A DNA stretch of 38,459 nt, taken from Natronincola sp. GTDB taxonomy: Bacteria; Bacillota; Limnochordia; Darwinibacteriales; Darwinibacteriaceae. Positions 652 through 38,459 of the stretch are shown one piece after another. Location: assembly GCA_012838515.1 (NCBI GenBank), contig DUPA01000012.1, forward strand, positions 1 to 38,459, written 5' to 3'. The position numbers were made by a program, and so were the translations under genes. How positions within the stretch are numbered: position 1 is the stretch's first letter; each line of letters starts with the position of its first letter. The notes below the pieces were generated by a model, which saw only the letters and a list, made by a program, of their open reading frames with translations, made no database searches and was not told the origin of the DNA.

Positions 652-2538
652 TCATTTATCCTTTCGCGCAACAAGTCTATAAGCCTGGCCTGACAAGGTT
701 TGCCTAACCCTTTGCGCAATATGCTGCGAGGTTATACCATATTCTTCATATAATTGCTCAATATTTCCCTGCGGTATGAAGGTATCGGGATAACCGATTC
801 GGTCAACCCTAACCCTAGGTACAGTGCTCAATAATTCAAGTACACTGCTGCCAAAGCCCCCTGCTAATACATGATCTTCGATGGTTAAGACATAGTTCGA
901 TGCTTTTGCTAGTTTTAAGATCATGGCTTCATCGAGGGGTTTAAGGGATCTCACATTTACAACCGCCAAATTGTATTCAGAAGCCAGTATCCCCGCGGCG
1001 TCCTGTGCTATTTCCACTAGAGGACCGGGCGCAAGAATAACTCCATCCCTTCCGTTACGGATTTGAGATGCGGTAATGGGCGCACTCTCATCAAAAACTA
1101 GTGCCTCACCACTTTCAATGGAAGTATTGGCCCGCGGATAGCGAATGATTACAGGACCATTTTGCCTAATTGCCCAAGTTAGCATTGCAGATAATTCTTC
1201 TCCATTACAGGGAGCCAAAATAACTAAGTTAGGTACAGTTCTTAAAAAGCTTATGTCGAAAACACCCTGGTGAGTCGGTCCATCATCCCCCACAACGCCT
1301 GCACGGTCAATTGCGAGTACAACCGGTAATCTTTGCAAGGCTAAATCATGAATGATTTGATCGTAACTTCTCTGGGCGAAAGTTGAATAAAGAGCCACAA
1401 CCGGACGCAATCCGTCCTTAGCCATTCCCGCAGCTAAGGTAACTGCGTGTTGTTCGGCGATTCCCACGTCGAAGAAGCGCTTAGGAAAAGTCTTGGCAAA
1501 CTTCCCCAGACCCGTTCCATCGCGCATGGCTGCGGTAATTGCAACTATTTTCGAATTTTCTTTCGCTAACTCAACAAGGGAGTTTCCGAATACTTTACTA
1601 TAGGAAATCTCCTGTCGCCGCTTAACCACTGATAGTGGACCCACACCATGATAACGATGGGGACTTTCTTCAGCTAGGGCATGTCCTCGGCCTTTTTGGG
1701 TGTTAACATGAATAAGAACGGGGCCGCCACGCTGTAAACCTGAGCGAATGGCCTTTCTCAATTGCGGTATATTATGACCATCAAAAGGACCAAAATAAGC
1801 AAAGCCTAATTCCTCAAATAATTGACCCGGCAGAATAGTTTTTAGTGTTCTCTTAAATTTGTGTGCAACTTTTGACACGGGGGAACCAACAACCGGAACA
1901 CGTCTTAAAAAAGAAGATAAATCTTCGCGCGCCTTGTATAGCGTGCTATCTGCACGAATTCTACCCAAATAATCACTAAGGGCCCCAACATTATTGGTTA
2001 TGGACATGTCATTATCATTTAAAATAACCACAATATCCTTGCCCAAAGTACCTATATGGTTCAGTGCCTCAAAAGCCATACCACCGGTGAGAGCCCCATC
2101 GCCGATGACCGCCACTACCTTATAATCATCGCCTTGTAAATCGCGGGCTATGGCCATGCCTGCAGCGGCGGAAATGGATGTGGAACTATGTCCCACTCCA
2201 AAATGATCGTGTTCGCTTTCGTTGGGGCAAGGAAACCCCGACAAACCTTGCCACTGACGAAGTGTGCTAAATTGATCTTTACGACCGGTAATTAATTTAT
2301 GAGGGTAACATTGATGACCTACATCCCAAATAATCCGATCTTTAGGACTGTTGAGCTCACTATGTAAAGCCAAAGTAAGTTCAACCACGCCAAGATTTGC
2401 ACCTAAATGTCCACCTGTCTTTTCAATGGTAGAAATGATGTAACTCCGAATTTCTTCAGAGAGCAATTTTAGTTGGTGAATATCCAAGTCTTTAATATCC
2501 TGTGGCGAATTTACTTTCTGTAACAAAGTACCATACAT
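652..2538 (-). CDS. dxs: 1-deoxy-D-xylulose-5-phosphate synthase
   Basis: 628-aa ORF. It has the GHQCYPHKLITGR and GDGALTGGMAFEALN thiamine-diphosphate motifs and a transketolase-like C-terminal half. ATG start at 2536-2538. Confidence 0.95.
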   Translation of the reverse strand: MYGTLLQKVNSPQDIKDLDIHQLKLLSEEIRSYIISTIEKTGGHLGANLGVVELTLALHSELNSPKDRIIWDVGHQCYPHKLITGRKDQFSTLRQWQGLSGFPCPNESEHDHFGVGHSSTSISAAAGMAIARDLQGDDYKVVAVIGDGALTGGMAFEALNHIGTLGKDIVVILNDNDMSITNNVGALSDYLGRIRADSTLYKAREDLSSFLRRVPVVGSPVSKVAHKFKRTLKTILPGQLFEELGFAYFGPFDGHNIPQLRKAIRSGLQRGGPVLIHVNTQKGRGHALAEESPHRYHGVGPLSVVKRRQEISYSKVFGNSLVELAKENSKIVAITAAMRDGTGLGKFAKTFPKRFFDVGIAEQHAVTLAAGMAKDGLRPVVALYSTFAQRSYDQIIHDLALQRLPVVLAIDRAGVVGDDGPTHQGVFDISFLRTVPNLVILAPCNGEELSAMLTWAIRQNGPVIIRYPRANTSIESGEALVFDESAPITASQIRNGRDGVILAPGPLVEIAQDAAGILASEYNLAVVNVRSLKPLDEAMILKLAKASNYVLTIEDHVLAGGFGSSVLELLSTVPRVRVDRIGYPDTFIPQGNIEQLYEEYGITSQHIAQRVRQTLSGQAYRLVARKDK

Positions 2539-2549
2539 AAATTAAACCT

Positions 2550-3116
2550 CTATTTCTTCTTATTTTTTACCGAATTTGGTTCAAACTTTACGCCTATTTT
2601 CTCCAAGGAGTTAAGAACCCATCCGGTCATCATCAAAATCTTGGTCGAATTTGAAATAGCATAATTCTTGCCCAATGCTTTTCCACCAACGGTTAAAGCC
2701 GCCACTAGTGCGACCATCAAGGTGGAAGTTAGTGCTTCACTTAATTCCGGCGAAGAACCAGCTATTCTAAAGATAACCGCCACACCTATGGCACCACTTA
2801 GGGTACCTGCAACATCACCTACGAGATCGTTACAGAAAGTGGATACCCCGTCTGCATTCCTAACAAGCCAGATTGCCTGTTTAGCCCCTGATACTTTATT
2901 TGAGGCCATGGCATGAAACGGTGCTTCGTTGCCTGCAGTGGCCGCCACACCAATAATATCAAAAAGTACACCAATAAGTATAACAAAAAGTAGTAACATA
3001 AAGCTTAATGTCAACGGTAAAAACGACAATACGCTGTTACTACCAAAGTTAAGTACCACGGAAAGAAAAAAGGTTATTAAAATCAATGAAAATAGCGTTT
3101 TCCAACGTCTTTGCAT
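2550..3116 (-). CDS. oapA: Small ~4-TM membrane protein, candidate OLE-associated protein A
   Basis: 188-aa ORF with about four hydrophobic segments (approx. residues 7-25, 33-58, 100-118, 128-148) and a lysine-rich tail. It lies immediately downstream of the large non-coding gene and immediately upstream of dxs (11-nt gap), the known position of oapA. An AAGGA SD lies 9 nt before the ATG at 3114-3116. Confidence 0.7.
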   Translation of the reverse strand: MQRRWKTLFSLILITFFLSVVLNFGSNSVLSFLPLTLSFMLLLFVILIGVLFDIIGVAATAGNEAPFHAMASNKVSGAKQAIWLVRNADGVSTFCNDLVGDVAGTLSGAIGVAVIFRIAGSSPELSEALTSTLMVALVAALTVGGKALGKNYAISNSTKILMMTGWVLNSLEKIGVKFEPNSVKNKKK

Positions 3117-3141
3117 TTTTATACATCCTTAAAAAAATACC

Positions 3142-3772
3142 GAGGTGAGTGGCAGTGATATGAGTAAAGATTGTGGCTTAGGTCCAGCAGGTTTTCCCAA
3201 AGATCTTCCAATTCGTCACCGTAACTGGCGGTTTCCCCTTTCTGATCTCTTCGCTTGTCACCAAAAACGAGGCTGGATTACCACTTAGACCACACCGTAA
3301 TCCCCATTTCACCATCTGAAAAAGATACAGTCTAGGAGTTTTCCTCGACACGGTTCACACTCTCTAGTCTCTTTTGCAGTAAAGGTTTCAAGGGTTTCCA
3401 CCAAGGTGGAGAGCAAAACGCTTCGGCCGAAAGCTTTTTTGCTTTTTATCCCTATCCCCCAATTACCACTCAAGACAGGCTACACTGCACCCAACACTGA
3501 TATGTGTATAAGCTACAATTTGGTATCGCGTGCAGGTTTAATCCCAAACCGTAAAAATGCGATCATCGCATTTCCACAGAAATGGGTCTCCGTGGGGGTG
3601 GGTCAACGCCTGCATGCCCTTGCAGATCGCCCTACCCCCTTAACCCCCAGCAGCAACCCATGACTGGGCGTCACAAGCCACCACCAGAGACTTCATCGAT
3701 GTGCCCTTAACGGATTTTTAGGCCCGCTTTCAAGAATGAGACCAGTGACTAGAATACTGCGCCACTCACCTC
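3142..3772 (-). ncRNA. ole: OLE (ornate, large, extremophilic) RNA candidate, ~631 nt
   Basis: A 703-bp gap with no credible ORF in an otherwise gap-free operon. GAGGTGAGTGGC (3142-3153) is the perfect reverse complement of GCCACTCACCTC (3761-3772), closing ~631 nt. Nested helices include 3594-3599/3634-3639 enclosing hairpin 3610-3614/3621-3625, an 8-bp hairpin at 3555-3573, and the GCAAAA...TTTTGC hairpin at 3413-3442. The synteny ispA-[RNA]-small TM protein-dxs-tlyA matches the published OLE context. Strand is inferred from the flanking operon and the upstream promoter. Confidence 0.78.
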
Positions 3773-3784
3773 TAAGTCTGTCTA

Positions 3785-3814
3785 ATTATACCATAGCCTC
3801 TGAATTAAGTGCAA
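3785..3814 (-). promoter_or_regulatory. SigA-type promoter with extended -10, directly upstream of the OLE candidate
   Basis: The minus strand reads TTGCAC (3814-3809) - 18 nt - TGG TATAAT (3793-3785). The -10 lies ~12 nt upstream of the 5' arm of the closing helix. The promoter begins 6 nt after the ispA stop. Confidence 0.5.
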
Positions 3815-3819
3815 GTAAA

Positions 3820-4713
3820 CTAATGGTCTCTCTGGATGATAAAGGTGGCTAAATATCTCAGTATATTTGCCTTACAAGTAAAACCTTTTAGTGCATCTAA
3901 ACATTCCGCAACACAGGCTTCAGCCAATTCTATAGATTTTTCAAGACCATATAGCCGCGGATAGGTCTGTTTACCTTTGTCCCGGTCTGCCCCTATGGCC
4001 TTGCCTAGTTGATCTGCGTGGCCAATCTCATCTAGAATATCATCGGTTATTTGGAAAGCCATCCCTAAGGATTCGCCGTAGGACGTTAGAAGTTCTAATT
4101 CTTTCCCACTGGCACCGCCTATTAATGCCCCACCGCGTAAAGCTGCTTTAATAAGAGCACCTGTTTTATGCTTGTGAATGTAGTCCAATGTTTGAGGTGT
4201 TAGCTTTTTTCCTTCCGAACTAATGTCGATCACTTGTCCACCTACCATCCCCTGAGAACCTGCTCCGGTAGATAACTCTGCGATCACTTTGATGGCAACA
4301 CTCGGACAGATACCGTAATCCTCGGGCATTTGCGCCAAAATTTCAAATGCTAGAGTTAGTAAGGCGTCACCTGCCAATACGGCCATTGCATCGCCATACA
4401 CCCTATGGTTAGACGGTTTACCGCGCCTTAAATCATCATCATCCATGCACGGCAAATCATCGTGTATCAAAGAGTAGGCATGAACCATCTCCACTGCGGC
4501 AGCAAGGCCGTCTGTCTGTTTTACATCTCCGCCCACCGCTTCGCAGGCAGCCATAACCAACATTCCTCTTAACCGTTTACCCCCGCCTAAAGTTGAATAA
4601 CGCATTGCTTCGTGGATCAACTCGGGCATTACTTGAACTCCGGGTAGTTTTTCTTCCAAGATATTCTCTATTTTCTCAGCAGTCGTATCCCAGTATGTTA
4701 AAAAGTTCTCCAT
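3820..4713 (-). CDS. ispA: Farnesyl/geranyl diphosphate synthase (polyprenyl synthetase family)
   Basis: 297 aa. First aspartate-rich motif LIHDDLPCMDDDDLRRG and second motif FQITDDILD. Overlaps the xseB stop by 1 nt. Confidence 0.9.
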   Translation of the reverse strand: MENFLTYWDTTAEKIENILEEKLPGVQVMPELIHEAMRYSTLGGGKRLRGMLVMAACEAVGGDVKQTDGLAAAVEMVHAYSLIHDDLPCMDDDDLRRGKPSNHRVYGDAMAVLAGDALLTLAFEILAQMPEDYGICPSVAIKVIAELSTGAGSQGMVGGQVIDISSEGKKLTPQTLDYIHKHKTGALIKAALRGGALIGGASGKELELLTSYGESLGMAFQITDDILDEIGHADQLGKAIGADRDKGKQTYPRLYGLEKSIELAEACVAECLDALKGFTCKANILRYLATFIIQRDH

Positions 4714-6143: not shown

Positions 6144-7097
6144 TCAAGATATTGTAATGATACCCGCCCGCAGTGCACCGTAGTATGCTGCACCATAAGC
6201 GTTATCAACACTATATTTCGGAGACGCGAAGAATAGTTTCCAATCAGGTAATGACTTCTCCAGTTGTTCCCTGATTAATAAATTAGCGGCCACTCCACCA
6301 ATAACCAATATTTCGCGGCAATCCGTTTTACTTTCGGTGAAGCGAATCCACTTAATTAGTGTTCTAGCAATAACATCAAGGCAAGTTCTTGCCAAGATTT
6401 CGGGTTCGACTTGTCCAACAATCCGCTCTAGAGCAGTTAAAGGTCCGGAAAAACTAATTTTTCCATTACGATGAAAGGTACTTATTGGCACTGTTTCGAG
6501 AGTTTTGTTCGCTAGGTTTTCCAATAATGGTCCGGCCGGAAAAGGTAGTCCAAGTTTAACCCCCAGACGATCCACTAATTGACCCGCATGTAAGTCTAAC
6601 GTGCAGCCTAAAGATTCAACTGCCAATCGAAAATCATTGCTATATCTTTTTACCTCCGTTAGTTCAGTTGTCCCCCCTGATAGATGAAGTGCTAAAAAGC
6701 GGGATTCTTTAAGCCCCCCGGAGCTAGCCACTCCGCTCCATATATGTGTTTCTTGATGAGTGGTTTCATAAACGGGGATGCCTAGGATATGACCTAAGGA
6801 ACTCGCGAAACTAGTTCCCGGTATGAAAACAGGCATGTATGAGTCGTCGCGGGGTCGAGGTTTAGCTGAAACTCCTATGGCGGTCAAAGTGTTAGTGTTA
6901 AAATGATTTTGAATATTAGCGGTTAACTCAGGCAAATTTTTCACATGTTGAAATAAGGCTTCCGATTGCCGTAATCCACGGGCACCGGAAGCCACATTTA
7001 AAATTTTTCGTTGGTCGGCGACCACTTTTCCATCTTCACCAACTAAACATATTGATGTTGTATAATTACTGGTATCAATCCCCAATACAAGCTTCAT
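6144..7097 (-). CDS. Kae1/TsaD-like ASKHA-fold protein (peptidase M22 family paralog), function unknown
   Basis: 317 aa. The N-terminal GIDTSNYTTS resembles the GIETSCDET phosphate-1 motif of TsaD, and a His pair HQETH aligns with the metal-binding HxxxH. The C-terminal GGVAAN motif is present. ATGA overlap with the nusB stop. Confidence 0.6.
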   Translation of the reverse strand: MKLVLGIDTSNYTTSICLVGEDGKVVADQRKILNVASGARGLRQSEALFQHVKNLPELTANIQNHFNTNTLTAIGVSAKPRPRDDSYMPVFIPGTSFASSLGHILGIPVYETTHQETHIWSGVASSGGLKESRFLALHLSGGTTELTEVKRYSNDFRLAVESLGCTLDLHAGQLVDRLGVKLGLPFPAGPLLENLANKTLETVPISTFHRNGKISFSGPLTALERIVGQVEPEILARTCLDVIARTLIKWIRFTESKTDCREILVIGGVAANLLIREQLEKSLPDWKLFFASPKYSVDNAYGAAYYGALRAGIITIS

Positions 7098-8674: not shown

Positions 8675-8707
8675 TTTTACACACCTCCTATAGATTATTA
8701 TATCAGA

Positions 8708-17810: not shown

Positions 17811-17839
17811 GAAAAAGAAAAACCCCGATATATGGGGTT
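17811..17839 (-). terminator. Rho-independent terminator after the 62-aa ORF
   Basis: The minus strand reads AACCCCATATATCGGGGTT followed by TTTCTTTTTC. The stem overlaps the TAA stop at 17838-17840. Confidence 0.6.
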
Positions 17840-18026
17840 AGGTTTGCTGAAAACTCAAGGTTACTTGAAGTGCGGCCGGCGTTTTATCAAGACTTAAATC
17901 AATTAAGGAACAGTCTTCTAATTCGGGATGCACCCTTCTCAAATCTTTAATTGTTTCGCGAACATCCTCAAGTAATTGCTGGGCAGAATTATAACCAACC
18001 GCCGTTTTATAAACAAATGATGTCAT
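17838..18026 (-). CDS. Hypothetical 62-aa protein
   Basis: ORF with a GGGGGAGGAG SD upstream of its ATG and its own terminator. I recognise no family. Confidence 0.4.
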   Translation of the reverse strand: MTSFVYKTAVGYNSAQQLLEDVRETIKDLRRVHPELEDCSLIDLSLDKTPAALQVTLSFQQT

Positions 18027-19746: not shown

Positions 19747-19755
19747 ATTATAGCA
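19747..19755 (-). promoter_or_regulatory. Candidate extended -10 element (TGCTATAAT) for yqeG-yqeH
   Basis: The minus strand reads TGC TATAAT about 30 nt upstream of the yqeG ATG. The -35 (TTCTAT/TTTCTA) is weak. Confidence 0.35.
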
Positions 19756-21966: not shown

Positions 21967-22206
21967 TTAAAGCATGCGTTCTTCTATTTTCTTAAGTAGG
22001 TGAACGGTGCCTACTTCACGTGCCAGTCGCCTTGAAAGTTTATAACAAAATGTTGCCAATTGTTGCTCGCCCTTTTGCATATACTCATCGCCCATCCTGA
22101 GGAGTCTTTTAATCTTTCTCCGTGGTTCTAAGGGCATTTTAACAACAAAATTTATTTTTAACCTTTGCCATTGTTTAGGCGGTTCAACGTCCATCGTCAA
22201 TTTCAC
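21967..22206 (-). CDS. Hypothetical small basic protein (79 aa or shorter)
   Basis: Has an ORF only. A possible TTGCGA-17-TATTAT promoter lies upstream at ~22239-22267. No family recognised. Confidence 0.35.
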   Translation of the reverse strand: MKLTMDVEPPKQWQRLKINFVVKMPLEPRRKIKRLLRMGDEYMQKGEQQLATFCYKLSRRLAREVGTVHLLKKIEERML

Positions 22207-26355: not shown

Positions 26356-27411
26356 GTGGATGTAAAACATTTTTTACGGAACTTGAGTGAAAGTTCAGGA
26401 GTATCAGGCTACGAACAAAACATTACAGAACAGATCAGCACGGCCTGTACATGGGCTGATGATATGCGGCGCGATAAACTTGGCAACCTCATTATGCTTA
26501 AAAGGGGTGAAGGTACTAAACCCAAAAAGAAAATTATGCTTGCAGCCCACATGGATGAAATCGGGCTAATTATCACAAAAGTCGAAAAAGGGGGGTTTCT
26601 TCGCTTCGGAACCATCGGTGGATTTGATCAACGGGTATTACTTGGTCAGGAGGTTATTGTTCACGGAAAAACCCCTTCATTGGGAATTATAGGAGCGAAG
26701 CCCCCCCACGTCCAAGCCCACGGAGAACAAAATAAGGCCGTCAAACTAGAAGACCTTTTTATTGACTTAGGCTATGACACAAAAGAAGATGCTGAAAAAC
26801 TAGTTCGCATAGGGGATCTAGTTACGCTAAAAAGGGAAGTAATAGATCTACAAAGCTCGTTACTTGCAGGCAAAGCATTTGATGACCGTGCGGGGGTTGC
26901 CGCTATTTTTGAATGTTTTCAAATTCTCTCCACACTTCACCATGAAGTTGATGTCTATGGTGTTGCAACGGTCCAAGAAGAAGTGGGACTAAGGGGAGCC
27001 GTCACAAGCACTTATGGTATTGTTCCTGATTTGGGCATTGCCATTGACGTTAGCTTTGGTGATCAACCTGATTTAAGAGAAAGCGAAACTATCAAACTGG
27101 GAAACGGACCGGGAATAGCCATAGGACCCCATGTGCATCCAAAAGTATATGATCGCATGGTAAAGACCGCTAAGGAATGGAATATCAAATATTCTTTAGA
27201 CCCCTCGCCATCACCCGGAGGAACAGATGCATATGCGATTCAAGTTGTGCAAGCAGGGGTTGCAACCATTTTGCTTTCAGTCCCCCTCCGTTATATGCAT
27301 ACTTCCATTGAAACAATTGACTATGACGATGTGAAATCTACAGGCAAACTCATGGCCATGTTTATAGCAGGACTTAATAATGAATTTGTGGAGGGGTTAA
27401 CATGCTTCTAG
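26356..27411 (+). CDS. M42-family metallo-aminopeptidase (paralog 1)
   Basis: 351 aa with AAHMDEIGLIIT, GKAFDDRAGVA and VQEEVGLRGA motifs. GTG start with a GAAGGAGGA SD. Confidence 0.85.
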   Translation: MDVKHFLRNLSESSGVSGYEQNITEQISTACTWADDMRRDKLGNLIMLKRGEGTKPKKKIMLAAHMDEIGLIITKVEKGGFLRFGTIGGFDQRVLLGQEVIVHGKTPSLGIIGAKPPHVQAHGEQNKAVKLEDLFIDLGYDTKEDAEKLVRIGDLVTLKREVIDLQSSLLAGKAFDDRAGVAAIFECFQILSTLHHEVDVYGVATVQEEVGLRGAVTSTYGIVPDLGIAIDVSFGDQPDLRESETIKLGNGPGIAIGPHVHPKVYDRMVKTAKEWNIKYSLDPSPSPGGTDAYAIQVVQAGVATILLSVPLRYMHTSIETIDYDDVKSTGKLMAMFIAGLNNEFVEGLTCF

Positions 27412-28427
27412 CGCAATTGACTGAAGTCAACGGAGCCCCGGGTCAAGAAGGTGAAGTGCGCAATTTGATTCGGGAACAAATTGAACCTTTCGTTGATGAA
27501 ATTAAAACAGATGCTTTAGGGAATTTAATCGCCATTAAAAACCCTCGAGCTATCGGCCCTAAAGTGATGCTCGCGGCCCATATGGATGAGGTTGCACTTA
27601 TGATAGTAGGTATTAAAAACAATGGCATGCTAGAATTTCGGCCGATAGGCGGAATCGATCCGCGTGTACTGGTGGCAAAGACAGTAATTGTGGGTAAGAA
27701 AAAGATTAATGGCGTTATCGGCGCTAAGCCAATCCATTTACAACGTCCCGATGAACGAGAAAAGGCTTTATCCATACAAGAATTATATATTGACATGGGA
27801 GTTAAAGATAAGGAAGAAGCAAAACGCTTGGTAAGTCTTGGGGAAATTGCCTATTTTACAACAAAATACGAAGAATTCGGGGAAGGAAAAGTGAAAGCGA
27901 AGGCACTCGATGATCGTGTTGGTTGTGCTCTTGCCATTAGGCTTTTGCAAGAAGATCTTTCTTTTCCTTTAATAGCGGCATTTACTGTGCAAGAAGAAGT
28001 TGGTCTCAGGGGTGCCGGTGTTGCAACTTATCAAATCAAACCCGATCTGGCATTAATTCTTGAGGGCACCACTGCCTCCGATGTTCCGGGAACCGATGAA
28101 CACAAGCACGCAACTTCGTTAGGTAAAGGTCCGGCCATTACATTTATGGATCGTGCGGTTATTACCCACCCACCTTTAGTCAAAGAACTTTTCGCCCTAG
28201 CTAATGAAAAGAATATTCCGGTTCAAGCCCGGCGTAATACCGCGGGAGGAACAGATGCAGGTCAAATACAACTAACCGAATCGGGAACAAAAGTTGCTGT
28301 TATTGCTGTACCTTGCCGCTATATTCATTCTCCCGCCTCTGTTATGAGCAAAAAAGACTACGATGGCGCATACGAACTAATCAAACACTATTTAAGATGT
28401 CTCGAAGAAAGGGAGGATTTCCAATGA
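27402..28427 (+). CDS. M42-family metallo-aminopeptidase (paralog 2)
   Basis: 341 aa with AAHMDEVALMIV, KALDDRVGCA and VQEEVGLRGA. Overlaps paralog 1 by 10 nt. Confidence 0.85.
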   Translation: MLLAQLTEVNGAPGQEGEVRNLIREQIEPFVDEIKTDALGNLIAIKNPRAIGPKVMLAAHMDEVALMIVGIKNNGMLEFRPIGGIDPRVLVAKTVIVGKKKINGVIGAKPIHLQRPDEREKALSIQELYIDMGVKDKEEAKRLVSLGEIAYFTTKYEEFGEGKVKAKALDDRVGCALAIRLLQEDLSFPLIAAFTVQEEVGLRGAGVATYQIKPDLALILEGTTASDVPGTDEHKHATSLGKGPAITFMDRAVITHPPLVKELFALANEKNIPVQARRNTAGGTDAGQIQLTESGTKVAVIAVPCRYIHSPASVMSKKDYDGAYELIKHYLRCLEEREDFQ

Positions 28428-29422
28428 AGGAAACTATCCGCCAACTAACCGAGGCCTTTGGGCCTTCCGGCTATGAAACTGAGGTCACGAGTTTAATAAA
28501 GACTATGATAACGGATTTTGTAGATGAAATAAAAACCGATGTATTAGGCAACTTAATAGCTATAAAGAAAGGTGCTTCCAATGGACATAAGATTATGTTC
28601 GCGGCACACACTGATGAAATTGGTGTTGTGGTAACCCACATAGACAAAGAGGGTTTCCTCAGATTCGCCACTGTGGGCGGTGTGGGAATATCAACCCTTG
28701 TGGGTAATCGAGTTCGTTTTCCCAACGGAATAATCGGAGTAATTTACCACGAAAAAGCTGATTGGAAAGATTTAAAAATAGATAAGCTCTACATTGATAT
28801 AGGGGCAGAATCAAAAGAAGAAGCCATGGAACAAGTGAAAATCGGGGAATTCGGGATCTTTCATCGAGAATTTTGTGACTTAGGTAATCGTTTGATTGCA
28901 AAAAGTATGGATGACCGCGTGGGCTGTGCCGTTCTTGTGGAAGCAATAAAGAAGATCAAAGAGCCAAGGAATGCCTTATATTTTGTTTTTACAACGCAAG
29001 AAGAAGTTGGTCTAAGGGGGGCTCGCACCGCCGCTTATGATCTAGAACCGGATCTTGGAATTGCCGTAGACGTTACCATTACCGGTGATATGCCTGAAGC
29101 CAGGCGCATGGAGGTTTCACTAGGCAAGGGTGCCGCCATTAAAGTAAAGGATTCCTCATTAATAGTACATCCAAAAGTAAAGCAAATATTGATGGATCTA
29201 GCAGAAAAGAATAAGATACCCTATCAAATGGAGGTTTTAGAATTCGGTGGTACTGATGCCGGGGCAATTCATCTCACTAGGTCAGGAGTACCATCGGGAG
29301 CGATCTCCATTCCCACACGTTATGTGCACTCGCCTTCGGAGATGATCGATATTCGCGATGTTGAAGCAAGTGTTGACTTAGTTGTTGCATTGGCTAACAA
29401 AGAACTTAACGAACTAAATTAA
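28424..29422 (+). CDS. M42-family metallo-aminopeptidase (paralog 3)
   Basis: The start is trimmed to the ATG at 28424 (MKETIRQLTEAFGPSG), giving an ATGA overlap with the paralog 2 stop. A GGGAGG SD lies upstream. Motifs AAHTDEIGVVVT, KSMDDRVGCA and TQEEVGLRGA. Confidence 0.85.
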   Translation: MKETIRQLTEAFGPSGYETEVTSLIKTMITDFVDEIKTDVLGNLIAIKKGASNGHKIMFAAHTDEIGVVVTHIDKEGFLRFATVGGVGISTLVGNRVRFPNGIIGVIYHEKADWKDLKIDKLYIDIGAESKEEAMEQVKIGEFGIFHREFCDLGNRLIAKSMDDRVGCAVLVEAIKKIKEPRNALYFVFTTQEEVGLRGARTAAYDLEPDLGIAVDVTITGDMPEARRMEVSLGKGAAIKVKDSSLIVHPKVKQILMDLAEKNKIPYQMEVLEFGGTDAGAIHLTRSGVPSGAISIPTRYVHSPSEMIDIRDVEASVDLVVALANKELNELN

Positions 29423-35917: not shown

Positions 35918-38459
35918 TTATGCGCTACATTCTTTTCTAAGGGCCTTCACCCTATCCCAAGTTTCTGCAGGTAAAGGTCGATCAAAATTTCTATAACCAG
36001 CAAGCTCAAACCCTTGCTTGCTCGCTAATTTACGAACATATTCCAAATGCTCCAAACTTAAATCAGCCCCGATACTAATGTGCTTGTAATGCTTATCTAG
36101 GGCAAGCATTATTGTCTCGGACATACAAGCAAATGCTTCACCCTTTTCAAACCCGAAATTCCATCCTAAATCAGGCTTATTAGGTAAGGCAACGACACCC
36201 CCATCAATAACTAATACGTCCGGTCTTTTACTTAAAACCTGTTTGCTCACATTACTCGGTCTAGACATATCACACACGATTGCACCTAGCTTTAAGGTTT
36301 CGGGGGTAATCAGCACCTCAGAGCTACTTGTTGCCGTCATAATTACATCTGCACTTGGTAGGTATTTTTCAGTGTTTACGGTGATTGAAATGGGTGCACC
36401 CCGGTCCAGCAGATTCTTTGCATATTCTATCCAGGATTTCAGATCAATATCTTCCGACGGAAAACAGGTAAGCTTAGATACATAATCCCCGAGACTACCG
36501 GGGGAAAAGACCTTTCCTCGATCGCCTAATTCACGAAGGTGTTTGATCATATCAACTACGACTTTAAGAATCCTATACTCACTTTTTTCTTGTCTTGCGG
36601 GATTGCCAATTAAAATCAACTTTTGCACTTGTTCACTCAAAAGTAAAGCCAATGCTTTACCAACTGCTCCGCCGGCACCGACAACTGCCGCCGTCACAGT
36701 ATTAAGATCCATACCGATTCGCTGTGCGGCATCTAAAATGGCCTCAACACCTGTGACAACAGTATAACTATTACCTGTAGTAAGTGCCACATTGGTGTGG
36801 GGTAACAATGAACGACCACCCATGGTAACAACAGATGTATAGGCACCTAAACCTACTATTTTAGCACCTCTGTCTTCGGCAAGTCGAATGGCGGCGGCTA
36901 TTTCTTCAATGGCCTCTGCCTTCGATAACTCCCGTAACTGATCTGCGGTTTTAGGTACGCAAATGAATTCTCCATAGGCGCTTTGACCATTATTGTCAAT
37001 TATTCTGCTGCCGCTTACTACAAAAGGCTCCACTAGATCATTCCAACGAGAGCTCAAATCTGCGAGCTGATCTTCAGTTAAGTTTTTTAGACTCTCGTCA
37101 AACTCAGTGTAATTTTGCAAATCAACAGGATGAACCAAAAAGGCAAAACGACCATCATTTTTCTCAGGCGTATCATTAATTGTTTCTGTCATTCTGCTTT
37201 GTTGTCCCGGGAAAGATTTGCGACTATAGCCCACAAGGTGCCCTAAGAATGAGGCGGTATCGCGGCATTCCAATTGTTCAATGGTGCTTTTAATTGCTTT
37301 ACTTACATTTTCAATTTGTTCATCATTAATAATCAAAGGCGGTTCAATCCTTATGACGCCGGCACCATTAAGGGTTGGTGCCACCCTAACCTTTTCTACA
37401 TTTAATAAATAAGATGACACCATGGGCGTAAGCATCTCTTGCTCGGCCATGACGCCGAGAAGGCTATTGGGATAAGCATCCTTGCAATTATTAAACTCAA
37501 TGCCGAGCATCAAACCTTGGCCACGTACTCCTTTGATGATTGTGGGATGTTCTAAGGCAATTTGCTGTAAAGCACACTTCAACTTATCCCCTTTGTCAGC
37601 AATTTCCTTGACCAAAGAGGAATTATTTTCCGTTAGTAATTGCACTACCGCCAATCCTACGCGACAGGCAAGTGTGTTTCCTGCGAAAGTTGAGGAATGC
37701 TTCATGGCGAATTCTTCTGTATATACTTCATCTTTACACAAAACTGCACCAATGGGAAACAAACCGCCCCCCAGCGCTTTGGCGAGGACAAGAACATCGG
37801 GGGTAACATCTTCCTTTTCACAAGCAAACATGGTACCGGTTCTTCCGAGACCCGTTTGTATTTCATCGAAAATTGTAAGAACCCCATGTCTACCGCACAG
37901 ATCTTGAACGTCTTTCAGATAGCCATGATATGCTTCGACAATGCCGCCCTCGCCTTGTATTGGTTCCACAATGAAAGCTGCCGTTTCAGTGGCTTTTTCC
38001 TCAAGATAAACCCTTAATGCATCAATGTCGCCAAAGGGAATATGGTAAAATCCGTCGACGGGGGCCCCGAAAACCTCTTGATAATCTTTGTTGCCTGTCG
38101 CGGAAAGGGCTCCTAAAGTTTTACCATGAAAACTATTCTTAGTTGCCAAGATTGAATGTTTACCTGTTTTAGCACGAGAAAGCTTCAGTGCAGCTTCAAC
38201 AGCTTCTGCACCGCTATTGGCAAATGTAACATTTTTTAGCCCCTTAGGTGCAATGGCAATAAGGCGTGCTCCTAAATCACCGGCGGCCTCCAAAAGCGAT
38301 GGTTGAATAAAACTAGGTTCTTGATTTAGCTCAACATTATGTAAAGCGCCCCAAATCTCCGGTGGATTATAACCGAAGGGCAATGCACCATAGGCTGCTA
38401 TGCAGTCAAGATATTCTTGACCCTCAACGTCATACAAATAACATCCCAATCCACGCTTA
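35918..38459 (-). CDS. Fusion protein: class-III PLP aminotransferase (N-terminal) + acyl-ACP-reductase-like NAD(P)-binding domain (C-terminal); 5' end outside the window
   Basis: The frame stays open to the window edge (..KRG upstream of the track's TTG), so the N-terminus is missing. Aminotransferase motifs are FDEIQTGLGRTG and DVLVLAKALGGG (Lys codon 37778-37780). After a linker (~37150-37210) come FAFLVHP, GLGAYTSVV, TTGNSYT, VVGAGGAVG (~36660-36700) and FACMSE (Cys codon 36125-36127). These parallel FGLIGHL, ALGGFTSII, TTGNTHT, VVGATGDIG and FACFAE of cyanobacterial AAR as I recall it. Confidence 0.8.
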   Translation of the reverse strand, partial: KRGLGCYLYDVEGQEYLDCIAAYGALPFGYNPPEIWGALHNVELNQEPSFIQPSLLEAAGDLGARLIAIAPKGLKNVTFANSGAEAVEAALKLSRAKTGKHSILATKNSFHGKTLGALSATGNKDYQEVFGAPVDGFYHIPFGDIDALRVYLEEKATETAAFIVEPIQGEGGIVEAYHGYLKDVQDLCGRHGVLTIFDEIQTGLGRTGTMFACEKEDVTPDVLVLAKALGGGLFPIGAVLCKDEVYTEEFAMKHSSTFAGNTLACRVGLAVVQLLTENNSSLVKEIADKGDKLKCALQQIALEHPTIIKGVRGQGLMLGIEFNNCKDAYPNSLLGVMAEQEMLTPMVSSYLLNVEKVRVAPTLNGAGVIRIEPPLIINDEQIENVSKAIKSTIEQLECRDTASFLGHLVGYSRKSFPGQQSRMTETINDTPEKNDGRFAFLVHPVDLQNYTEFDESLKNLTEDQLADLSSRWNDLVEPFVVSGSRIIDNNGQSAYGEFICVPKTADQLRELSKAEAIEEIAAAIRLAEDRGAKIVGLGAYTSVVTMGGRSLLPHTNVALTTGNSYTVVTGVEAILDAAQRIGMDLNTVTAAVVGAGGAVGKALALLLSEQVQKLILIGNPARQEKSEYRILKVVVDMIKHLRELGDRGKVFSPGSLGDYVSKLTCFPSEDIDLKSWIEYAKNLLDRGAPISITVNTEKYLPSADVIMTATSSSEVLITPETLKLGAIVCDMSRPSNVSKQVLSKRPDVLVIDGGVVALPNKPDLGWNFGFEKGEAFACMSETIMLALDKHYKHISIGADLSLEHLEYVRKLASKQGFELAGYRNFDRPLPAETWDRVKALRKECSA

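Follow-up and report, generated by a model that had tools for sequence, protein, structure and literature searches.

A full-length OLE RNA gene and its oapA partner in a contig of Natronincola sp.

OLE RNAs rank with the largest non-coding RNAs of bacteria for which no biochemical activity has been defined; at present they are proposed to span the membrane. In the present study we analysed a 38,459-nt stretch of DNA of Natronincola sp. (contig DUPA01000012.1 of assembly GCA_012838515.1; the whole stretch is referred to below as the window), for which an initial annotation had proposed an OLE RNA gene between ispA and dxs. We found that the gap between these genes holds a full-length match to the OLE model, followed directly by a gene for the partner protein OapA. 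The class itself is already published, as the initial annotation also remarked. More than 2,800 matches have been catalogued in GTDB (PMC11332333), and its canonical neighbourhood is formed by isoprenoid/DNA-repair and related housekeeping genes (PMC12265935).

With the full-length OLE type (RF01071; Puerta-Fernandez et al. 2006; Fernando & Breaker 2024, PMC11332333) the window copy shares full coverage of the model, 94% of the conserved nucleotides, helices P1, P2 and P3, a downstream oapA, the isoprenoid/DNA-repair operon context and a Bacillota host (the published P-numbers were assigned here by inference from the text of PMC12265935, PMC9723947 and PMC12286853). It differs from that type in its sequence (at most 71% identity to any of 74 sampled GTDB copies), in a P1 of 12 bp against 7–11 bp, in a larger P8 loop, in a private CUUG mini-hairpin in P9, and in a P1-to-P1 distance of 631 nt, the median being 602 nt. 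In OLE variants 1 and 2 the helices P7, P8 and P9 are shortened or missing (PMC11332333); the probable P7, P8 and P9 of the window copy all align, with P8 and P9 longer than in the model, which places it in the full-length type and in neither variant.

The experimentally studied OLE-OapA-OapB-OapC particle of Halalkalibacterium (Bacillus) halodurans has in common with the present locus a proximal promoter before P1, the ole-oapA pair, a GUGA tetraloop at the P13-like hairpin, the DxxxD motif of OapA, and the palindromic CUAG and CAUCGAUG sites. In the second tetraloop the window copy has GUGA where H. halodurans has GCGA, the P13-like bulge is apparently 2 nt here against 1 nt, and, whereas H. 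halodurans is an aerobic alkaliphile, the present host looks like an anaerobic spore-former. The OLE homodimers of Clostridium acetobutylicum and C. botulinum, studied by cryogenic electron microscopy (cryo-EM; Kretsch et al. 2025, PMC12286853; PMC12265935), share with the window copy three kinds of dimer-contact loop and a 12-bp P3 + P3.1. This likeness is one at the sequence level, and the window copy departs from the clostridial RNAs by a G-to-A change at 3593, in J6/7, a region assigned to the k-turn in the cryo-EM model (PMC12286853). The “ornate” RNAs GOLLD, ROOL and the raiA motif are likewise large, highly structured non-coding RNAs of unresolved function, and GOLLD and ROOL self-assemble into multimers, as OLE dimerizes. 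In contrast to OLE they have no sequence or structural match in the window (OLE is the sole Rfam match), occur in other hosts and gene contexts, and lack a dedicated membrane-protein partner.

The OLE gene between ispA and dxs

The gap between the ispA stop codon (3820) and the next minus-strand start codon (3116) measures 703 nt, more than any other intergenic stretch of the window. The next-longest gaps, of 367 and 430 nt, hold one small minus-strand open reading frame (ORF) each, so that the description of the 703-nt gap as the only long ORF-free stretch was essentially right. Scanning the whole window with Rfam 15, the covariance-model check that had been proposed for the region, gave an untruncated match to OLE (RF01071) at 3781..3133 on the minus strand, covering model positions 1–616 of 616 with 479.7 bits (E = 6.6e-138) against a gathering score of 50 bits. 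No second Rfam match was obtained in the whole window, either at the gathering thresholds or at a permissive E ≤ 0.1.

The match is 649 nt long, OLE RNAs being about 600 nt in length with near-invariant residues at roughly a quarter of their positions. Identical residues were found at 235 of the 249 highly conserved (upper-case) consensus positions of RF01071, and only 10 of the 156 pairs of the Rfam structure are non-canonical in the window copy. Folding of the region yielded a minimum free energy (MFE) of −233.7 kcal/mol against −203.2 ± 4.8 kcal/mol for 20 dinucleotide shuffles (z = −6.4), in agreement with its earlier description as highly structured. The full-length model match, the covarying helices and the adjoining downstream oapA (see below) show that the OLE call was correct, and the complete OLE/oapA module is identified from sequence, structure and synteny. 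We regard it as almost certain that the minus strand of the ispA-dxs gap carries a genuine OLE RNA gene, intact and full-length.

Conserved helices and features private to this copy

An exact scan for the conserved 16-mer GGGCACATCGATGAAG in bacterial and archaeal contigs, one genome per species, retrieved 120 loci, of which 88 really carry OLE as judged by nhmmer with the window OLE as the query. All of these genuine loci came from Bacillota-type genomes. About a quarter of the 120 matches lay in non-Bacillota genomes; they gave no OLE match in the nhmmer filter and were discarded as chance. Seventy-four full-length OLE copies from other Bacillota genomes were aligned with the window copy using MAFFT (75 sequences; the alignment is noisy in variable stems), and a structure composed of the Rfam structure plus a 12-bp P1 (21 helices, 168 pairs) was projected on it. 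The retrieval pattern is invariant in this alignment by construction, so the conservation of the GGGCACAUCGAUGAAG element rests on the upper-case Rfam consensus.

Standard pairs occupied 86.3% of the cells, as against 69.8% in 500 column shuffles and 40–46% when the 3' partners were slid by 1–3 columns. Compensatory changes on both sides were detected in 141 of the 168 pairs, and none of the 500 shuffles matched the real alignment on any of five measures. The pairings listed in the initial annotation, for which a comparison with relatives had been suggested, are therefore conserved and covarying in the 74 homologs. Its nested helices and hairpins, including the outer helix 3594–3599/3634–3639 (ACCCCC/GGGGGT), are all present where it had located them, and all coincide with paired elements of the Rfam OLE model (Table 1).

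The long-range helices were analysed in the same alignment. A 12-nt complement had been reported to enclose about 631 nt, and positions 3142–3153 (GAGGTGAGTGGC on the plus strand) are indeed the exact reverse complement of 3761–3772. A long-range perfect complement of this length did not arise in any of 300 mononucleotide shuffles of 3117–3819 (the longest, 11 nt, arose in 4 of the 300), and the helix is present in the MFE and centroid folds alike. This closing 12-bp helix, unpaired in the Rfam model, we take to be the published P1. Its inner 7 bp covary across the 75 sequences (UA 44, CG 19 and UG 9; GC 50 and AU 20; GC 42, AU 19, GU 7 and UA 4), while its outer 5 bp, paired in only about 40–70% of the other copies, are a lineage-specific extension. 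A contiguous P1 of at least 12 bp was found in only 4 of the 75 copies, 7–11 bp being usual.

The P2 candidate, formed by CAGU..CUAG with CUAGACUG, is 100% paired in the 75 sequences and nearly invariant, so that its covariation is uninformative. P3 and P3.1 form a long-range stem of 6 + 6 bp that is absent from the Rfam annotation and encloses five hairpins, P4–P9 (the 5' domain). They are paired in 92.7% and 76% of cases, respectively, and each shows compensatory changes in 6 of its 6 pairs; for P2, P3 and P3.1 as a set, pairing reaches 90.6%, compared with 30–45% when the partners are slid. The CUAG palindrome in P2 and CAUCGAUG are the two mapped OapA-binding regions, and a membrane-spanning role has been proposed for the stem of P3 with P3.1, 12 bp in total (PMC12265935).

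Three kinds of dimer-contact loop are present, and these are candidate contacts in the window copy: (i) the A-rich loop CCUAAAAAUCC at 3722–3712, on the hairpin (P4) that is a dimer contact in cryo-EM structures (PMC12265935), (ii) the GCCCA loop of P5.1 (within 3672–3662) and the complementary GGGC (within 3623–3612) in the P6.1 loop AAGGGCAU, and (iii) the palindromic GGCC loop at the P9 apex (3428–3425), a kissing-loop dimer contact reported to covary as GGCC/GAUC/AGCU (PMC12286853). The 3' domain carries two GUGA (GNRA) tetraloops, both in GGUGAC (3262–3257 and 3220–3215), at the positions of the P13 and P14.1 OapB-binding hairpins, and a GNRA tetraloop is required for OapB binding (PMC7936274). 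The bulge of the P13-like stem appears to be 2 nt rather than the conserved 1 nt, with one model position deleted.

Some features are private to the window copy among the 75 aligned sequences. The pair 3475/3368, C-G in 73 of the 75 sequences, is U-A here, and this compensatory switch argues for ongoing selection on the structure. The P8 loop is enlarged (private part 3498–3520, minus strand), and a CCAC-CUUG-GUGG mini-hairpin (approximately 3399–3411) is inserted in the 3' strand of P9.

Table 1. Features of the OLE/oapA locus and of other gaps in the window.
Feature	Position	Strand	Details
OLE RNA gene, full-length type	3133..3781	minus	extent of the Rfam RF01071 match
P1, 5' arm	3761..3772	minus	GAGGUGAGUGGC; perfect complement of 3142-3153
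P1, 3' arm	3142..3153	minus	GCCACUCACCUC
Probable P2, 5' strand	3749..3759	minus	CAGU..CUAG, holds CUAG palindrome; pairs with 3328-3335
P3.1 and P3, 5' strand	3733..3747	minus	CAC-U-GGU (P3.1) and CAUUCU (P3); pairs with 3349-3363
P3 and P3.1, 3' strand	3349..3363	minus	AGAGUG (P3) and ACCGUG (P3.1); pairs with 3733-3747
Probable P4 hairpin	3709..3728	minus	invariant A-rich loop CCUAAAAA; 98% paired; A68-A71 invariant
Invariant GGGCACAUCGAUGAAG	3691..3706	minus	holds palindrome CAUCGAUG (3701-3694; probable P4a); second mapped OapA-binding region (PMC12265935)
Probable P5/P5.1	3643..3689	minus	long hairpin with GCCCA loop; 20 pairs, 96.6% paired, 15 compensatory
Probable P6/P6.1	3594..3639	minus	outer GGGGG(U)/(A)CCCCC around hairpin 3610-3625; helices 81% and 98% paired
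Probable P7 hairpin	3547..3587	minus	apex is the 8-bp stem 3555-3573 (AAAUGCGA/UCGCAUUU); 17 pairs, 16 compensatory
Probable P8 hairpin	3488..3536	minus	loop 23 nt larger than in Rfam model; 8 positions private to this copy
Probable P9	3366..3477	minus	long composite stem, apex hairpin 3413-3442; Rfam match, covariation in the 75-sequence alignment
3' domain ("domain 2", probable P10-P15)	3154..3313	minus	helices 82-100% paired; extensive compensatory change
Weak -35-like hexamer	3814..3809	minus	TTGCAC, directly after ispA stop codon; 3/6 match to TTGACA
Extended -10 element	3785..3793	minus	TGGTATAAT; TG 3793-3792, TATAAT 3790..3785
U7 tract	3137..3131	minus	4 nt after P1 3' arm; then AAGGA 3130-3126 and ATG 3116
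oapA	2550..3116	minus	188 aa; Shine-Dalgarno sequence AAGGA 3126-3130; start 17 nt past end of Rfam match
dxs (1-deoxy-D-xylulose-5-phosphate synthase)	652..2538	minus	downstream of oapA; TIGR00204, 761 bits (cut-off 466)
ispA (farnesyl diphosphate synthase)	3820..4713	minus	upstream neighbour; NF045485 FPPsyn, 361.9 bits (cut-off 275); PF00348
Small ORF in another gap	17838-18026	minus	62 aa
Small ORF in another gap	21967-22206	minus	79 aa

Promoter, 3' end and the oapA gene

An extended −10 promoter had been described about 12 nt upstream of the 5' arm and written as “TTGCAC-18-TGGTATAAT”. Its elements are present and the −10 box ends 12 nt before the 5' arm of P1; the notation is off, since the 18-nt spacer runs from TTGCAC to TATAAT and already includes TGG as its last three bases. 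From this box, transcription is predicted to start at approximately 3779–3777, i.e. 5–7 nt before P1. A consensus promoter/terminator scan listed neither a promoter nor a terminator for OLE, the promoter having been missed because the −35 hexamer matches at only 3 of 6 positions. TGNTATAAT occurs 5 times in the window against 2.1 expected, and because a single occurrence is not rare (and not significant alone), the promoter call rests on its position and on cross-locus conservation. In the 33-nt zone upstream of P1, a perfect TATAAT was found in 42 of the 75 OLE loci and a match of at least 5/6 in 62, while a perfect box occurred in 3 of the 75 in a zone further upstream and in about 6.5% of shuffled zones; the TGn extension was present in 49 of the 75 loci. 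In B. halodurans, an active promoter at the equivalent position raises OLE expression more than 100-fold, and the 5' ends mapped there are close to where P1 begins (PMC3413148). A dedicated promoter upstream of P1 is thus well supported as a prediction for the window copy, and represents already known biology in B. halodurans. The −10 box directly before P1 is widespread in OLE genes across Bacillota, the published evidence considered being that for B. halodurans.

At the other end of the gene, a U7 tract does follow the 3' arm and precedes the Shine-Dalgarno sequence of the next gene, as had been stated, but a terminator role for it is unsupported: no local terminator hairpin was found before U7, P1 being the sole stem upstream of it. 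A U-rich tract right after P1 was present in only 12 of the 75 loci (16%), and an A-rich one in 3, so we rejected U7 as a conserved terminator, the feature not being general. A separate hairpin terminator between OLE and oapA was detected in 11 of the 75 loci, and any terminator-like signal in 23. Thus, some loci have a hairpin-plus-U terminator, others a U tract after P1, and most have neither (the loci examined 5–30 nt after P1 included L035, L003, L073, L077, L088, L012 and L048). These mixed signals suggest that 3'-end formation between OLE and oapA varies by lineage. In the window, the Shine-Dalgarno sequence of oapA starts right after U7 and leaves no room for a promoter of its own, which argues that oapA is co-transcribed with OLE.

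It is conceivable, though improbable, that the 12-bp P1 and U7 act in this lineage as a “folding-completion” terminator/attenuator that sets the ratio of RNA to OapA. P1 would form only once the whole OLE had been made, and its folding might decide between a stop at U7, giving free OLE, and read-through into oapA. The position of P1 as the sole stem before U7, the lack of a promoter for oapA and the excess of U-rich over A-rich tracts (12 vs 3 of 75) speak for this idea, whereas the 4-nt distance of the U tract from the stem and the occurrence of such a tract in 16% of loci weaken it. We also know of no terminator with a 600-nt “loop” that works.

Of the 74 other loci, 64 have an ORF of 100 aa or more whose start lies no further than about 400 nt past OLE, and 63 of these 64 ORFs encode a homolog of the 188-aa window protein (phmmer E values of 1e-30 to 1e-50). 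In an alignment of 30 OLE-adjacent homologs, identity to the window protein was 34–44% and nine residues were invariant, among them both aspartates of the DxxxD motif (D97-L-V-G-D101), which separates OapA from true CNNM domains (PMC11332333). The window protein gave no NCBIfam match and a sub-threshold match to Pfam CNNM (PF01595) over residues 41–174 (E = 1.5e-4; 21.9 bits against a cut-off of 28.4). CNNM was matched at E ≤ 0.01 by 20 of the 30 homologs, in line with the published likeness of OapA to its nearest relatives, the MpfA/CorB-type CNNM (DUF21) Mg2+ transporters, OapA being the next-best CNNM scorer after MpfA (PMC11332333). Unlike these transporters, OapA consists of the membrane domain only (188 aa), lacks CBS and CorC domains, and has DxxxD. 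Kyte-Doolittle hydropathy, used without a topology predictor, indicated about four hydrophobic segments (approximately residues 4–30, 26–63, 98–120 and 125–143), and basic clusters are found at the N-terminus (RR(W)K) and the C-terminus (KNKKK). The adjacency to OLE, the DxxxD motif, the membrane segments and the resemblance to CNNM together identify the gene as oapA.

Alternative explanations, proposed working and genomic setting

We discount entirely that the gap is unrelated to OLE, an intergenic region that is structured by chance or contains small ORFs. Mechanical ORFs of 42–85 aa do occur on both strands inside it, but ORFs of such lengths are to be expected in 700 nt, these ones overlap conserved RNA helices, and the match to the OLE model (E = 6.6e-138) comes with helix-by-helix covariation with 74 homologs. 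Given this RNA-level covariation, we rejected the small ORFs as coding. It is very unlikely that the region acts mainly in cis, as a very long structured leader of the oapA-dxs mRNA (attenuator- or riboswitch-like), instead of as a free-standing stable RNA. Such a leader would be consistent with a transcript shared by OLE and oapA, with the Shine-Dalgarno sequence placed right after U7 without room for a promoter, with the lack of a local intrinsic terminator hairpin before the U tract, and with terminator-like signals between OLE and oapA in only 23 of the 75 loci. However, the roughly 250 conserved nucleotides and 25 helices go far beyond any known leader, and in B. halodurans OLE runs as one discrete band of very high abundance, its half-life being about 3 h (PMC3413148). 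In that species it also acts in trans, binding OapA and rescuing phenotypes when it is provided from a distal locus (PMC3413148, PMC12265935). RNA-only OLE dimers are formed in vitro (PMC12286853).

Slightly less probable still is that the window copy is a decaying relic that no longer functions. Deviations at the near-invariant positions 3593, 3461 and 3296, the private insertions in P8 and P9, and the 2-nt instead of 1-nt bulge in the P13-like stem could be taken as signs of decay. Nevertheless, 94% of the conserved positions are kept with full coverage of the model, two of the near-invariant deviations make up a single compensatory change, one on each side of the pair 3475/3368, and a third, at 3728, leaves its pair a standard A-U. 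The insertions lie in the loop of P8 and inside P9, and natural OLE variants carry shortened versions of these stems or lack them (PMC11332333). Both the promoter and oapA, with its invariant DxxxD, are intact.

We prefer to read the OLE particle as a scaffold with a regulatory function, through which the handling of divalent cations by OapA would be modulated. Transcription would start at the dedicated extended −10 promoter about 5–7 nt before P1, and probably also reach the gene by read-through from xseA-xseB-ispA, a step we infer from the sequence, the cross-locus conservation and the B. halodurans experiments. The RNA of about 640 nt would then fold, with P1 closing it, P2 and P3/P3.1 enclosing the 5' domain, and P10–P15 forming the 3' domain with its two GNRA tetraloops; the conserved architecture itself is supported by the covariance-model score and the covariation. 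As the spacing suggests, the polymerase would pass U7 into oapA, so that the RNA and its partner protein would come from one transcript. OapA, a putative four-helix CNNM-like membrane protein, would bind the palindromic sites flanking P3 and hold the RNA at, possibly across, the membrane, while the RNA would dimerize through the three kinds of contact loop described above (A-rich, GCCCA/GGGC and GGCC). Joined by OapB and OapC, whose genes lie elsewhere, RNA and OapA would make up the complete ribonucleoprotein particle, a stress-response particle that would help the cell to withstand alcohol and cold as well as an excess of Mg2+ or a poor carbon source. OapA binding, dimerization and the OapB/OapC particle are carried over from published work on other species, what is seen here being the corresponding sequence elements.

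Several points weigh against this explanation of the locus as a whole. To our knowledge, no biochemical activity of the OLE particle has been established in the field, and no KOW/SBB or L7Ae-type protein, as expected for OapB or OapC, was found among the scanned ORFs of the 38-kb window; oapB and oapC are normally unlinked to ole, and a genome with a full-length OLE is expected to have both. A search of PDB sequences with the OapA profile gave no match at E ≤ 1. The transcript ends, abundance and membrane localization are predictions for the source organism, and the RNA itself carries the private P8 and P9 insertions and the G-to-A change at 3593, in a near-invariant joining region (G in 72 of the 74 other copies).

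The order of genes on the minus strand of the window is spoIIIAA-AH; accB and accC; asp23/amaP-type genes and a DUF2273 gene; nusB; a TsaD-like paralog; xseA, xseB and ispA; and OLE, oapA and dxs. In a metagenome contig with identical oapA and dxs (L121), these genes are followed by a TlyA-like gene (S4 and FtsJ domains) and then NAD kinase, so that the arrangement claimed initially, from ispA through OLE and oapA to dxs and tlyA, is borne out by the two contigs. The exact OapA sequence is on record in metagenome assemblies only. As regards the host, the window contains the spoIIIAA-AH operon, typical Bacillota synteny and several Fe-S proteins. The sporulation genes and Fe-S proteins point to an anaerobic endospore-forming member of Bacillota, and Fe-S/MinD-type and FeMo-cofactor-binding-like proteins likewise hint at an anaerobic host.

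Several other features of the window were recorded. Two further perfect TGnTATAAT sequences (minus strand) occur between genes, in short gaps: that at 8697–8705 is upstream of the asp23/amaP pair and that at 19747–19755 upstream of HAD-phosphatase/YqeH-type GTPase genes. Both are plausible operon promoters. Between nusB and xseA, 6144–7097 (minus strand) encodes a 317-aa TsaD/Kae1-like protein whose scores stay far below the thresholds of the family (TIGR00329, 124 bits with a cut-off of 207.8; TsaD, 113 bits with a cut-off of 296); it is possibly a paralog of the t6A enzyme that has diverged and serves a different role. An 843-aa protein (35918–38449, minus strand) has a class-III aminotransferase domain (residues 2–389) fused to a long C-terminal part with weak Rossmann-type matches (tetrahydrofolate dehydrogenase/shikimate dehydrogenase); its ORF ends 10 nt from the window edge. 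The sole plus-strand block in the window (26356–29422) is composed of three consecutive paralogous M42 glutamyl-aminopeptidase genes and adjoins a TldD/PmbA pair and a DUF123 gene.

The OLE copy described here is an ordinary further example among the thousands known; beyond its divergent sequence it is of low interest, and it opens no new question in a class whose representatives have already been catalogued in such numbers. As a divergent intact copy from an uncultured, apparently spore-forming host, it contributes some comparative data (at most 71% identity, the 3475/3368 switch, and the P8 and P9 insertions). For the family, the analysis indicates that a dedicated −10 promoter is kept, along with helices P1 and P3, in a broad sample of Bacillota.

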